Positions 11,350 through 24,449 of a stretch of DNA of 64,000 nt are shown here, one piece after another; position 1 is the stretch's first letter, and every line of letters starts with the position of its first letter. Location: the IMG/VR virus record IMGVR_UViG_3300017655_000001, positions 23,439 to 87,438 of that record; one strand, given 5' to 3'. This stretch comes from a virus. Lineage: Duplodnaviria; Caudoviricetes. Under the pieces are notes generated by a model. It was given only the letters and a program-made list of their open reading frames with translations, was not told the origin of the DNA and searched no databases. Made by a program: the position numbers and the translations under genes.

Positions 11350-11378
11350 AAAAAGAAAGGAGCCGAAAGGCTCCTTAT
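11350..11378 (-). terminator. intrinsic terminator after methyltransferase
   Basis: AAGGAGCC-CTTTC-GGCTCCTT then TCTTTTT. Confidence 0.7.
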
Positions 11379-12061
11379 AAAAACTCCTTAATCAATCTTG
11401 AAAATGCAACTGCTGCCACGATTGGAACTTGCCCATTTCCAGCGGCGCGATTGCGTTCCATCCGAAAGGCCATCCCATCAGATACTCCATGCTCCATGGG
11501 GTTACTTTTCCAAAAACCGTTACATAATTTTGGCAAGATTTGTGTTTCTGCATCGATGGTGCTGCAAAGTTTGCCATAGTGGTTGGTGTATGCAAGTAGC
11601 CAAAATCTTTTCCGTGAGTGGTCTGCACCCAAGTCTTTCGCTGATAACTGGACATATTTACATTCATATCCGACACTTTCAAGATCTTGCTTTGCTTTGA
11701 GGATCGGCTTTTCGGATACGTTTTCTGCAAAGACAAGTGTAGGGCAAACTTCTCGTACAATCCTGTACATTTCTCCCCATAAATCTTTTTCAGCAACATT
11801 TCTTCCTCTTGCTGCATTAGAAAACGCTTGACAGGGGAATCCGCCAGAAACCAAGTCCACAGTTCCTTTCCATGGTCTTCCATCAAAAGTGCATACATCG
11901 TCCCAAATCGGGAAACTTGGGATAATTCTATCGTTCTGCCTTTGCACAAGAACATTTTGACACCACTCATCTCGTTCAACAGCGCATACAATACTGTTTC
12001 CGAGGAGGTGGCTTGCAAGTAATCCTCCACCAGCGCCCGCGAATAGATGAAGCTCATTCAT
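11375..12061 (-). CDS. DNA (cytosine-5)-methyltransferase, catalytic (alpha) polypeptide (228 aa)
   Basis: motif I FAGAGG, IV GGFPCQ, VI ENV, VIII RKRFW, X GNGQVP; only ~45 aa between VIII and X, so no room for TRD/motif IX. Confidence 0.92.
   Translation of the reverse strand: MNELHLFAGAGGGLLASHLLGNSIVCAVERDEWCQNVLVQRQNDRIIPSFPIWDDVCTFDGRPWKGTVDLVSGGFPCQAFSNAARGRNVAEKDLWGEMYRIVREVCPTLVFAENVSEKPILKAKQDLESVGYECKYVQLSAKDLGADHSRKRFWLLAYTNHYGKLCSTIDAETQILPKLCNGFWKSNPMEHGVSDGMAFRMERNRAAGNGQVPIVAAVAFSRLIKEFL
11392..12057 (-). CDS. putative methyltransferase beta polypeptide encoded in an overlapping frame (221 aa)
   Basis: ATG 4 nt downstream of alpha ATG; open for 221 codons; HTPT and MEYLMGWPFGW (motif IX-like) near C-terminus. 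Confidence 0.75.
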   Translation of the reverse strand: MSFIYSRALVEDYLQATSSETVLYALLNEMSGVKMFLCKGRTIELSQVSRFGTMYALLMEDHGKELWTWFLADSPVKRFLMQQEEEMLLKKIYGEKCTGLYEKFALHLSLQKTYPKSRSSKQSKILKVSDMNVNMSSYQRKTWVQTTHGKDFGYLHTPTTMANFAAPSMQKHKSCQNYVTVFGKVTPWSMEYLMGWPFGWNAIAPLEMGKFQSWQQLHFQD

Positions 12062-12079
12062 TTGGTTTCCTTTTAAAAT

Positions 12080-12336: not shown

Positions 12337-12596
12337 GTAAATTCTTTACACGAAAACACACCAGCTTCTGTTAGTACATTATGAATGCTATGCAATGCAG
12401 CCCAATATTGTTTCATATCGTTGTCTGCGTGTTCAGGAATGTCAGCCCATATTGACAAATGAGAAGAGTAGGCTATTAAAGCAAGAGATAACGCATAGCT
12501 TAAGTCGTCACACGCGACTATGTAGTTTTCATCGTTGTTGTTCTGTTCTTTCAAGGCTTGGATGATACCAAGCGCTTTAGGTTTATCGTAGCTCAT
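12333..12596 (-). CDS. hypothetical protein (87 aa)
   Basis: ATGA overlap. Confidence 0.7.
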   Translation of the reverse strand: MSYDKPKALGIIQALKEQNNNDENYIVACDDLSYALSLALIAYSSHLSIWADIPEHADNDMKQYWAALHSIHNVLTEAGVFSCKEFT

Positions 12597-12952
12597 GTTG
12601 AAAACTCCACAACTTTAATATTCTCAAATGATTTTAAAACTTCAATACACGTTACACAAGGTTGGCTCAAACAAGGGTTGTCTTTTGCGTCCAACCTAAC
12701 AACCGTAAGTCGGTAGCCTTTTCTGTACCTGTCTTTTAGCAAAGCTGCAACCTCCGCACAAATGCATTGTTTCTCGGGTTTTCCTGCACGTTTAGAGGCT
12801 TTAGCTGTGAGTGGATGGGTCTTATGATAACTGTTCCTTCCTTCGCTAATTAGCTTCCCTTTCTTCGTAGAAATCACACAAAAATGACGACTATACCCGC
12901 GCCTGTATGGCGTCTCTTTGCATTTCTCTAGTGCGTAGTCAAACGGAGACAT
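12593..12952 (-). CDS. cytidine/deoxycytidylate deaminase-fold protein
   Basis: EGRNS, CAEVAAL (HAE-equivalent), SQPCVTC; TGATG coupling favours start 12952. Confidence 0.7.
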   Translation of the reverse strand: MSPFDYALEKCKETPYRRGYSRHFCVISTKKGKLISEGRNSYHKTHPLTAKASKRAGKPEKQCICAEVAALLKDRYRKGYRLTVVRLDAKDNPCLSQPCVTCIEVLKSFENIKVVEFST

Positions 12953-13117
12953 CAGTAATACCAAGAATTATAAGTATTCTGGGCATCCTCCTGTGCATAT
13001 TCGTCATACTCTTGCTGAAGTTCACGCATAGCTTGACGATATTCTTTATCAGTCAAGTTGCCGTTTTCATGTTCTTCACAAATCTCTTGTTCGGCTTTGT
13101 CGTACCAAGTTTTCATT

Positions 13118-22340: not shown

Positions 22341-24449
22341 ATGCTAGGTGAAAATGAGATTACGCTAGACATCGAGGCTGATGGCTTTATTTTCGAATCG
22401 ACAAAAGTTTGGACTGTCTGTGCAACTAATCAGCAGACTGGAGAAAAGATTAAAGTCAATCCTTTTAAAGATCCATCCGCCAAAGCAAAGCTAATCTCAT
22501 TTCTTTTTAAGAAAGAAAATCCCACGATTAGCTTTCACTTCGGTCTAGGCTATGATATGTTTGTATTGCAAAACCTTCTGGACATAAAGTTTACAGTTGG
22601 CAGAGACACAATTGAAGGAAAGCCAGTCCAGTTCATTGATACTCTTTATTTGTCAATGTTCCTTAATCCAGACCGTCAGGGACACAGCATCGAAGCTTTT
22701 GGTGAAATGCTTGGACTTCCAAAGATTGATTGGCGTGAAAAGGCTATCGAACTAGGACTGATCGAGAAGAATGCACCCGATGGTGCCGAGTTCATGCAGT
22801 GGCATCCAGAGATGGATGTTTATTGCGAGCGAGATGTTGATGTAAACGTTCTGGTATATGAGTACCTTAAAAAAGAATGGCGGGAAGTATATGGCAAGGA
22901 TTTTACAATTACTGATGCCTTTAAGTGTGGGCAAAAGTCTTTCTATCTTATGTCCTGTCAAGAATTGTCAGGCTTCAAATTTGATATTCAAGGCGGTAAA
23001 AAGCTGGCTGAACGTATTGAACAAATGATGGAAGAAATTCGTGCTGAGGTTGAACCACAACTTCCACCACGGCCTTTGAAGAAGTCAGAAGAAAAGTATT
23101 ATGCAATGCCAGCTAAGCCATTCAAGAAGAATGGAGACTACTCAAGTTCTTGGACTAATTTTGTAGAAAAACATCAAGGAAAAGAGGTAGACGGTGGTTG
23201 GGAATTCTACGGTAAAGTTTATACTGTAGAAGCTGGAAAAATGCTTGATGTAAAAATGCCCATGGAGATGGCAAACCAAGACCAGATGAAGGATTGGTTC
23301 TTGGAAAATGGATGGGAACCCACGCTTTGGAACTACAAACGCGGTCCTGATAACAAGCCATTGCGTGACCCACAAACACGGCAATTGATTCCAACCAGCC
23401 CAAAGATTCAGGAACAAGGTAAAATCTGTAAAAACCTTGAAAAGATGGAAGGTGAAATTGTAAAGAAAGTGGTTAAGTGGCTTAGTCTCCGTAACCGACA
23501 ATCTGTTCTTAATGGCTGGCTAGAGAACCCACGCCTTCAGATGGATGGCCGTATTGGTGCTGGACGTACAGGCATTGCAGCGACACACCGACAAAAGCAT
23601 AAAACCGTAGTTAACGTGCCTAAAGCATCAGAAAAGGTTCTATTAGGTAAAGAGTTTCGTTCACTTTGGATTTCTGAAGACGGCTTCCTTATTGCAGCAG
23701 GGGACGCAGCAGCACTAGAGGGTCGAGTACAAGGGCACTATTGCTACAAATACGATAACGGAGCTACAGCAGAAGAACTTCTAAAGGGCGATGTACACTC
23801 TAAGAATGCTCGGTTTGCTTTCTATGACCATGTACCTGAAGTCCGTAAATTTGACATTGCAGCACCTGAATTTAGTAAAGATGACCCTGTGTTCAAACCT
23901 TATCGGGATTGGAGTAAGAACGGATATTATGCCTGTATGTATGGTTGTGCGGGGCCTAAGCTTGCTGCTACATTGGGTATTCCAGTAAAATTAGGCACCC
24001 AGAAGCTTGAAGCATTTTGGGATGCAAACCCAGCCACAAAAGCTTTAAAAGAAAATCTTGAAAAATACTGGGCAACCGTTGGCCGTGAGAAGTATCTTCC
24101 TGCTATTGATGGGCGTATGCTTTGCACTCGAAAGAAATCAGCTTTGCTGAACACCATCTTCCAAAGCTGTGGCGGGATTACTATGGATTATGCTGGGTGC
24201 TTTATGGATTCTTGGCTCGGGGGGTTGAAGTGGAAAGACCGTAAACCATACTATCTATACAAAGGATACGTTGTTCGGCGGATCGCCTATCAACATGACG
24301 AATACGAATTTGAAGCTGAGGAACCTATTGCAGAAGAAATTGCACGAATGATTGAAAAGGCTATTGAAAAAGCAGGTGAATACCTTAAACTGAAGGTTCC
24401 CCTAGCCGGTGAGGGCAAGGTTGGCAAGTCTTGGAAAGAAGTTCACTAA
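22341..24449 (+). CDS. family A DNA polymerase with 3'-5' exonuclease (702 aa)
   Basis: ExoI DIEAD; motif A GDAAALE; motif B R..SKNGYYACMYG (Tyr at the E. coli 762-equivalent site, as in T7); motif C QHDE. Confidence 0.95.
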   Translation: MLGENEITLDIEADGFIFESTKVWTVCATNQQTGEKIKVNPFKDPSAKAKLISFLFKKENPTISFHFGLGYDMFVLQNLLDIKFTVGRDTIEGKPVQFIDTLYLSMFLNPDRQGHSIEAFGEMLGLPKIDWREKAIELGLIEKNAPDGAEFMQWHPEMDVYCERDVDVNVLVYEYLKKEWREVYGKDFTITDAFKCGQKSFYLMSCQELSGFKFDIQGGKKLAERIEQMMEEIRAEVEPQLPPRPLKKSEEKYYAMPAKPFKKNGDYSSSWTNFVEKHQGKEVDGGWEFYGKVYTVEAGKMLDVKMPMEMANQDQMKDWFLENGWEPTLWNYKRGPDNKPLRDPQTRQLIPTSPKIQEQGKICKNLEKMEGEIVKKVVKWLSLRNRQSVLNGWLENPRLQMDGRIGAGRTGIAATHRQKHKTVVNVPKASEKVLLGKEFRSLWISEDGFLIAAGDAAALEGRVQGHYCYKYDNGATAEELLKGDVHSKNARFAFYDHVPEVRKFDIAAPEFSKDDPVFKPYRDWSKNGYYACMYGCAGPKLAATLGIPVKLGTQKLEAFWDANPATKALKENLEKYWATVGREKYLPAIDGRMLCTRKKSALLNTIFQSCGGITMDYAGCFMDSWLGGLKWKDRKPYYLYKGYVVRRIAYQHDEYEFEAEEPIAEEIARMIEKAIEKAGEYLKLKVPLAGEGKVGKSWKEVH

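Follow-up and report, generated by a model that had tools for sequence, protein, structure and literature searches.

A phage C5 DNA methyltransferase gene with a second conserved reading frame that may encode a recognition subunit

Results

Two overlapping reading frames in one gene

In the stretch of viral DNA analysed here (64,000 nucleotides, positions 23,439 to 87,438 of the IMG/VR virus record IMGVR_UViG_3300017655_000001; hereafter the window), two open reading frames (ORFs) on the minus strand, alpha and beta, overlap almost over their full length. The source record, inside which the window sits, is a complete virus record of 87,438 bp with direct terminal repeats. Alpha spans the 687 bases of the gene, and the ATG of beta is located 4 nt past the alpha ATG in the start context aaaaggaaaccaaATGAATGAGCTT, which places beta in the +1 frame. 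An earlier note on this DNA, made from the sequence alone, had drawn attention to these two same-strand ORFs of 228 and 221 amino acids that start 4 nt apart and are both open, and they are present exactly as claimed. We describe here the conservation of the two frames and a probable function for them as the two chains of a split C5 DNA methyltransferase. The ORFs and their start signals are as follows.

11375 to 12061, minus strand: alpha ORF, 228 amino acids plus stop, a C5 DNA methyltransferase large (catalytic) domain that carries motifs I, IV, VI, VIII and X
11392 to 12057, minus strand: beta ORF, 221 amino acids plus stop, in the +1 frame relative to alpha, open in nearly all relatives
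12066 to 12072, minus strand: Shine-Dalgarno-like AAGGAAA, with an aligned spacing of about 4 nt to the alpha ATG and 8 nt to the beta ATG
12053 to 12061, minus strand: dual start box ATG-A-ATG-AG, with the alpha start at 12059-12061, the beta ATG at 12055-12057 and one TGA each in the beta and the third frame

Selection keeps both frames open

Inside alpha, the +1 frame contains no stop codon from codon 2 to the stop of beta itself; the +2 frame contains 14. For the other 39 long ORFs in the window, stops in the +1 frame occur at 3.4-8.5 per 100 codons, and the longest open stretch in this frame covers at most 49% of the gene, versus 97% in the case of alpha. At about 6 stops per 100 codons, the chance of 219 open codons is approximately 1e-6, and shuffling of the synonymous codons of alpha (5000 shuffles) gave a mean of 6.0 stops, with zero stops in 0.02% of the shuffles. 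The chance estimate of the earlier note is in line with these numbers.

For the comparison with relatives, 80 viral loci were picked by similarity to alpha alone (35-73% identity, GC content of 43-61%). Their +1 frames have 0-3 stops, mostly just the stop of beta itself, and their +2 frames 5-28; synonymous shuffles of these loci gave means of 2.5-10 stops in the +1 frame. Stops in the beta frame of homologues, if common, had been named beforehand as an argument against a second product, and they turned out to be rare: between codon 2 and the last codon of motif VIII, 3 were observed in 54 non-redundant loci as compared to 174.7 expected from synonymous shuffles. Conversely, stops are absent from the alpha frame over the interval from motif VIII to motif X in 53 loci, among them long forms in which this interval comprises 137-213 codons and for which beta-synonymous shuffles gave 4-7 alpha-frame stops; this sample is slightly biased, as it required motif X to be detectable in the alpha frame, and the frames are exchanged in two of the long forms, L039 and L042. 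The beta frame is 207-405 codons long and, regardless of gene length, its stop lies within about 40 nt of the alpha stop in most loci. We conclude that selection preserves the openness of both frames and that the second one is a genuine, conserved reading frame rather than a chance ORF.

A nearly invariant dual start

The start box, NTG-A-ATG-AG, is nearly invariant among relatives. In 71 unique start contexts, the start codon of alpha is ATG (39), GTG (26) or TTG (6), and that of beta is ATG in all but 2, which have GTG (69 and 2, respectively). Alpha codon 2 is AAT in 68 contexts, CGT in 2, CAT in 1 and AAC in 0, the variants CGT and CAT altering the alpha residue yet leaving GTG or ATG as the start of beta. 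A few loci show the reversed order, in which the beta ATG comes first and alpha starts with TTG 5 nt later. Where a Shine-Dalgarno-like match is present (45 contexts), it lies 3-5 nt before the alpha start and 7-9 nt before the beta ATG in 37 cases. Since both spacings fall in the usual working range, a single Shine-Dalgarno sequence can, to judge from these distances, serve both starts, if anything favouring beta.

The conserved 9-mer NTGAATGAG (12053-12061) contains the start of frame 0, the ATG of the +1 frame and one TGA in each of the +1 and +2 frames, so that upstream genes read in two of the three frames terminate directly at the dual start. The stop of the upstream adenine methylase of Salmonella phage S9-5 falls in GTGA, and that of the upstream ORF of Klebsiella phage BUCT711 in ATGA. 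In this respect, the dual start box looks like a translational-coupling junction.

Amino-acid selection alternates between the frames

Codons were threaded on alignments of 49 non-redundant short forms, and the variability of each codon position was recorded. Over alpha codons 1-153, alpha position 3 is the most variable; over codons 154-204, approximately, it is alpha position 1, which is position 3 of beta; and from about codon 205 the alpha periodicity is back. Ratios of non-synonymous to synonymous changes (pN/pS), computed among the 15 closest sequences, follow the same course, with 0.35 for alpha and 1.13 for beta in codons 5-150, 0.96 and 0.36 in codons 158-203, and 0.57 and 0.58 in codons 206-226. 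The synonymous divergence of alpha codons 5-150 in close pairs was 0.292 versus 0.285 in the flanking genes, of which few ORFs were compared, so that no extra synonymous constraint on these codons was found in this comparison. With a pN/pS of 1.13 and equal synonymous rates, beta residues 1 to about 150 give no sign of amino-acid selection beyond the avoidance of stops, and for the same reasons beta was no longer regarded as a protein selected over its entire length. Three conserved blocks in this part of beta, MSWLFSRAL, SRFG and ELLTW..DSPAK, overlie alpha motifs I, IV and VIII and are, going by this position, imposed by alpha. The segments delimited in this way are listed below.

11594 to 12049, minus strand: alpha-frame-selected segment, alpha codons about 5-156, motifs I-VIII; the beta frame is merely kept open
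11450 to 11602, minus strand: beta-frame-selected segment, alpha codons about 154-204 and beta codons about 153-203, with the HTPT...SMQK stretch resembling a target recognition domain (TRD); alpha is a non-conserved linker here
11458 to 11487, minus strand: motif IX-like EYLMGWPFGW in the beta frame, within the beta-frame-selected segment
11378 to 11449, minus strand: alpha codons 205-228, with motif X GNGQVP (11423-11440) and the C-terminal helix; the beta tail PLEMGKFQSW, which is conserved, overlaps

Amino-acid selection is thus interleaved, acting on alpha in codons 1-156, on beta in codons 157-204, approximately, and on both in the last 20 codons or so. Outside its selected segments, each frame is only kept open, and selection switches from one frame to the other at the motif VIII/TRD and IX/X borders. 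A comparison of substitution types in both frames, as proposed in the earlier note, hence points to amino-acid selection on beta in codons 158-203 and to none on beta in codons 5-150. The statement that almost every base codes twice applies in a formal sense only, as each stretch is selected in one frame, save the last 20 codons, approximately, and the motif VIII/HTPT junction.

Alpha is a catalytic domain lacking a recognition region

Sequence profiles and the structural model assign alpha to the C5 DNA methyltransferases, of which it represents the large, catalytic domain. Motif I (LFAGAGGG, residues 6-13) aligns to motif I of M.HhaI, and its residues F7, G9, G11 and G12 are invariant in 48 relatives, as are C77, E113, N114, R150 and R152. 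Motifs IV (GGFPCQ), VI (ENV) and VIII (HSRKRFWLLA) are found at residues 73-78, 113-115 and 148-157, and motif X (GNGQVP, with G208, G210 and Q211 invariant) at 208-213. Alpha matches Pfam PF00145 with an E-value of 1.8e-26, over residues 3-165 only, and phrog_363 with 9e-48, and the alpha family profile matches M.HhaI with 2.6e-23. The set of motifs reported in the earlier note is borne out, and so is the short gap between motifs VIII and X, which comprises only about 50 residues and is non-conserved among the relatives.

In the AlphaFold2 (AF2) model of alpha, built from the 48-sequence alignment, the predicted template modelling score is 0.70, and confidence is high over residues 1-160 and 208-228. 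The predicted local distance difference test (pLDDT) score exceeds 80 over the latter segment, including a helix at 213-227, and drops to 32-48 for residues 163-207, which are predicted to form a disordered linker. In Foldseek searches, the model matches M.HaeIII (E-value of 7e-12), M.HhaI and a prophage methyltransferase over about 174 aligned columns, corresponding to the large domain only. Neither a TRD nor motif IX was found between motifs VIII and X of alpha by conservation, by AF2 or in the PF00145 and PDB matches, which end at about residue 170. That alpha would lack these two elements had been anticipated, and the unconserved, disordered linker and the end of the PF00145 match at residue 165 agree with this.

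The beta module sits at the position of the missing elements

Beta carries HTPT at residues 156-159 and EYLMGWPFGW at 191-200, the latter being similar to the motif IX pattern (R)LxGFPxxF and selected in the beta frame. Along the DNA, motifs I-VIII (frame 0) are followed by the G-Y-L-H-T-P-T region and EYLMGWPFGW (frame +1) and then by motif X (frame 0), which is the canonical order of motifs I-VIII, TRD, IX and X. In longer relatives, the added length sits in the interval between motifs VIII and IX. The beta frame contains 1 to 6 xPTPxxxD modules (3-6 in the longer forms), and in these longer relatives the alpha reading of the module DNA is low-complexity filler. Such length variation between motifs VIII and IX is as expected for a target-recognition region, as far as the sequences tell.

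The AF2 model of beta, based on an 87-sequence alignment, has pLDDT values below 50 for residues 1-135 and contains a small helical module at residues 140-215, approximately, with values of 54-79. The predicted folds of alpha and beta are therefore complementary in the models and match the selection pattern. Foldseek returned only non-significant matches of the beta model to DNMT3 catalytic domains (28-33 columns, E-values of 5-9). The C-terminus of beta matches two PHROGs of 68-71-residue proteins of unknown function (E-value of about 2e-7). The beta family profile retrieved 9,807 representative proteins (clusters at 50% identity) at E-values of 1e-3 or below and 970 at 1e-30 or below, from which it follows that gene callers often choose the beta frame.

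A bridge to one-chain enzymes is provided by Streptomyces phage Samy (L097, OR263580, 1327-2668). In this phage, the alpha frame stops after motif VIII, and the +1 frame contains five xPTP modules, EWLMGLPDGW and motif X (GNGVVP) in one chain with the canonical distance between motifs IX and X. Annotation divides the locus, which represents a member of the same clade with an M.AquI-like arrangement, into two genes, phrog_116 and phrog_1008. This stretch of Samy matches the C-terminal end of PF00145 weakly (E-value of 0.2) and the beta profile over 17 columns (hhalign, E-value of 3.4e-4). On grounds of position and context, which support it well, rather than of significant homology, we infer that the beta module is a TRD plus motif IX. 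The proposal of the earlier note that the end of beta supplies the missing TRD and motif IX was thus supported as to the position, where the selected segment sits exactly, but it gained no significant Pfam or PDB match.

Relatives and their annotation

In the phage genomes in GenBank, one frame or the other is annotated, never both. The records of Pseudomonas phages phPA-G and Shamal and of Ralstonia phage Gerry list beta, under the name 'hypothetical protein'. Those of Salmonella phage S9-5 and Acinetobacter phage ABMM1 list alpha as a methyltransferase, and that of Klebsiella phage BUCT711 lists a truncated form of alpha. The expectation that standard annotation would miss beta was correct insofar as only one of the two frames is recorded, but the recorded frame is sometimes beta, under the name of a hypothetical protein.

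A series of layouts is seen among more distant relatives, one of which, Burkholderia phage phi1026b, has the form in which both frames start together. In its locus (L095, NC_005284, 1109-2929), beta starts in the context GTGAATGGTG and is open for 607 codons, straight into the downstream gene, which is annotated as ParB-like. Several others of these more distant relatives, in phages of Stenotrophomonas, Mycobacterium, Synechococcus, Bacillus, Porphyromonas, Paenibacillus and Nodularia, have nested beta frames of 161-236 codons that begin 20-65 codons into alpha. Vibrio phage 1.233.A, also of this group, encodes a canonical enzyme in a single frame that includes motifs IX and X; the open stretch of its +1 frame is limited to 119 codons.

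Further variants were seen in individual loci. Two tandem dual-frame methyltransferase genes, each with the start NTGAATGAG and its own beta of 216 and 230 codons, respectively, are present in L011 (675-1430 and 1501-2194); they presumably have two specificities because their beta tails differ. In L047 (1505-2698), beta starts with GTG in the context ATGCGTGAG and runs 169 nt beyond the alpha stop into a Cys-rich tail, CECCGEECGACYG...CDDC, which, by its sequence, may be an added zinc-binding module. In the 3' part of L039 and L042, an indel swaps the frames so that the beta frame ends with alpha motif X and motif IX is lost, and in L020 (1505-2125) the beta frame stops within motif IX (LNPQWVE, then stop); these three are likely decayed copies or sequencing errors. 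Among longer proteins, no in-frame fusion of the catalytic domain to the beta module was found with the window's own words, and the family profile gave only P0277. This protein of 622 amino acids, from a 52-kb metagenome contig, consists of beta frame, alpha motifs IV-VIII and the beta motif EWFMGWPIGW, lacks motif I and continues into PDDEXK (PF12705) and DUF2800 domains. It is probably a frame-hopping chimera that represents a broken gene or an assembly artefact.

Gene neighbourhood

The genes adjoining the methyltransferase gene are small phage genes with no nuclease signature, and the methyltransferase is therefore an orphan. Downstream, the following feature was found.

11357 to 11376, minus strand: terminator-like hairpin AAGGAGCC-TTTC-GGCTCCTT followed by TCTTTTT, starting at the alpha stop codon

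The hairpin is strong, with 8 bp including 5 GC pairs and a T-rich tail, and since it starts at the alpha stop, the dual-frame gene is apparently the last of its transcription unit. An ORF of 123 amino acids located two genes upstream and on the same strand (12593-12964, minus strand) matches the zinc-binding region of cytidine and deoxycytidylate deaminases (PF00383) right at the cut-off (E-value of 1.8e-5, 25.0 bits) and has CAE and PCxxC motifs. It places a gene of the nucleotide-metabolism or editing type near the methyltransferase.

Discussion

A two-chain methyltransferase and its alternatives

Taking sequences, models and selection analysis together, we consider it probable, though by no means certain, that the gene encodes an orphan C5 methyltransferase of two chains, in which alpha is catalytic and beta contributes target recognition and motif IX. 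Two polypeptides would be translated from the starts 4 nt apart behind the one Shine-Dalgarno site. Alpha would provide motifs I-VIII, a passive linker of about 45 residues and the motif X helix. Beta would consist of an unstructured but translated leader of about 150 residues, i.e. the +1 reading of the alpha motifs, and a module of about 70 residues in which a minimal element for target recognition (G-Y-L-H-T-P-T...S-M-Q-K) is followed by motif IX (E-Y-L-M-G-W-P-x-G-W). The two chains would assemble into one active phage methyltransferase that marks the phage DNA, at an alpha:beta ratio fixed by the shared ribosome-binding site. We infer in this way the translation of beta from its ATG, the assembly of two chains and a protective role, the last two corresponding to the anti-restriction heterodimer of the earlier note. 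It may be, as a matter of speculation, that the shared 5' start is the only way to initiate a second frame in a heavily translated gene and at the same time to fix the ratio.

Several observations weigh against this proposal. Both the translation of beta and its binding to alpha are deduced from sequence. Pfam had no match for beta, for all 87 members of its family or for the long forms, nor did NCBIfam or PDB sequence profiles for beta and its relatives, and fold searches with the beta model (Foldseek against the PDB, VIA wide and VIA second look) returned no structural neighbour. The mean pLDDT of this model is 50. The assignment of motif IX depends on a short pattern and on the weak bridges described above (E-value of 0.2; 17 columns). 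The overall identity of beta to its relatives is 30%, hardly above the 26% of the untranslated +2 frame, because the first 150 residues, approximately, only avoid stops. It is odd, too, that a module of about 70 residues should need a leader of 150 residues without detectable selection, and an internal start such as that of M.EcoHK31I would seem simpler.

The low identity of beta, which barely exceeds that of the +2 frame, would also fit the view that there is no second product and that the open +1 frame is a by-product of the composition of alpha or of a constraint at the level of the nucleic acid. This view is already close to refuted. Shuffles that preserve the alpha protein and its codon usage gave 175 stops where 3 were observed, the openness persists from 43 to 61% GC, codon periodicity and pN/pS move to the beta frame in codons 157-204, the start codon of beta is near-invariant, and the canonical relative in Vibrio phage 1.233.A has no long +1 frame. 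A different question is whether beta, if translated, is a subunit of the methyltransferase at all. It might be a separate DNA-binding or regulatory protein, or its translation might tune the expression of alpha, with alpha active by itself or together with a host factor. The lack of significant similarity between beta and known domains, the predicted disorder of most of beta and the fact that some small C5 enzymes function with very short variable regions are compatible with such a role. On the other hand, it is not evident how alpha could recognise a DNA sequence, given that its linker between motifs VIII and X is unconserved and predicted to be disordered, the selected module of beta lies at the TRD/IX position, this module is fused in frame to motif X in Samy, and pure regulation leaves the amino-acid selection on beta residues 153-203 unexplained. 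We therefore give a role of beta outside the enzyme a small, though appreciable, chance.

The proposed two-chain enzyme has also to be compared with the synthesis of a single chain by recoding, in which ribosomes would read the alpha frame, shift by +1 after motif VIII and shift back by -1 for motif X, or would shift only once to produce a fusion of motifs I-VIII with TRD and IX or of TRD and IX with X; a methyltransferase of the canonical type would result. In a one-chain enzyme, the elements follow each other exactly as the selected segments do in the DNA (0, +1, 0), and P0277 hops between frames in a similar way, although this protein, without motif I, looks broken or misassembled. For recoding, however, neither the conserved ATG of beta and its open frame over codons 1-150 nor the open alpha frame across the TRD would be needed, and yet the former are strongly conserved. 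A conserved slippery site was not found: within the last 50 beta codons, heptamers of the type X_XXY_YYZ occur in 6 of the 49 sequences, all different and at the background rate, and the nucleotides at both frame borders are conserved no more than coding requires. Because the beta start and both open frames are conserved needlessly under recoding and no slippery site is present, we regard it as quite unlikely. A programmed ribosomal frameshift gene was rejected for the absence of a conserved heptamer and because beta is open from codon 2 with its own conserved start.

Implications

We lean, by a little, towards the view that the two-chain methyltransferase exemplifies a widespread and essentially unannotated design. 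A split enzyme would be written in two interleaved frames that alternate selected modules with stop-free spacers, with one ribosome-binding site and two starts 4 nt apart setting the subunit ratio. Beta would represent an unrecognised family of specificity subunits (about 9,800 clusters at 50% identity), whose 1 to 6 xPTP modules fix the targets, possibly several per enzyme. Should both chains be produced and required, the annotation 'DNA cytosine methyltransferase' of thousands of phage and prophage genes would cover half an enzyme, the other half being the corresponding 'hypothetical proteins'. Expression of the annotated ORF by itself, or of a codon-optimised copy in which the second frame is destroyed, would then give an inactive or unspecific enzyme. 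The gene would also offer an exceptionally clear natural example of long dual coding on one strand, extending over 220-400 codons and conserved in phages of several bacterial phyla, and a testable model of how one ribosome-binding site sets the ratio of two subunits. The variable xPTP modules would offer a handle on the target choice of orphan phage methylases and hence on the restriction systems they defeat. The segment-by-segment selection makes the gene a useful benchmark for detectors of overlapping genes.

Comparison with known systems

In the literature searched, mostly non-subscription journals, we found no description of the present layout. A two-subunit methyltransferase of Stx phages was considered as a match and set aside as an unrelated two-gene enzyme. 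In actinophages, methylase genes carry out-of-frame inserts encoding HNH endonucleases, namely the ShiLan domain and Pacc40 (PMC11855218). As in the window, a phage methylase gene contains a part read in another frame while the methylase frame is free of stops, but there the insert is local and codes for a selfish homing nuclease, whereas here the second frame runs through the whole gene and is apparently part of the enzyme. A beta chain of the present kind is not described in PMC11855218.

The one-chain enzymes M.HhaI and M.HaeIII, which belong to PF00145, share with alpha the catalytic motifs and the fold of the large domain, and with the gene as a whole the canonical order of elements; their small domain, comprising TRD and motif IX, is absent from the alpha chain. 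M.AquI (CYCGRG) is a C5 methyltransferase split over two genes, one for a catalytic chain with motifs I-VIII and one for a recognition chain (PMC3404938). It resembles the present case in that the enzyme is divided in or beside the variable region, and the relative in Samy has the same division, its second chain comprising TRD, IX and X. In the window, by contrast, motif X remains with alpha, and both chains come from the same DNA instead of from adjacent genes.

The closest parallel is M.EcoHK31I of E. coli HK31 (YGGCCR), an alpha/beta C5 methyltransferase that requires both chains for activity and whose beta chain is specified by a different frame of the alpha gene (Lee, Kam and Shaw 1995, as cited in PMC2836561 and PMC3404938). 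The analogy drawn in the earlier note is apt in light of these descriptions, which are the basis of the comparison. The gene of the window shares with it the second frame for beta embedded in alpha, an arrangement that is conserved in the relatives. The alpha chain of M.EcoHK31I, however, retains the TRD, and its beta chain gives only motif IX from an internal start, whereas in the window alpha lacks the TRD, the TRD-like part is in beta, and beta starts 4 nt after alpha and spans the whole gene. Moreover, M.EcoHK31I is part of a restriction-modification system and the present gene is a phage orphan. That a beta chain can be encoded by a second frame of its alpha gene has thus been known since 1995 for one enzyme; new with respect to M.EcoHK31I are the location of the recognition part in the second frame, the full-length overlap with starts 4 nt apart, the interleaved selection and the very wide distribution of the layout.

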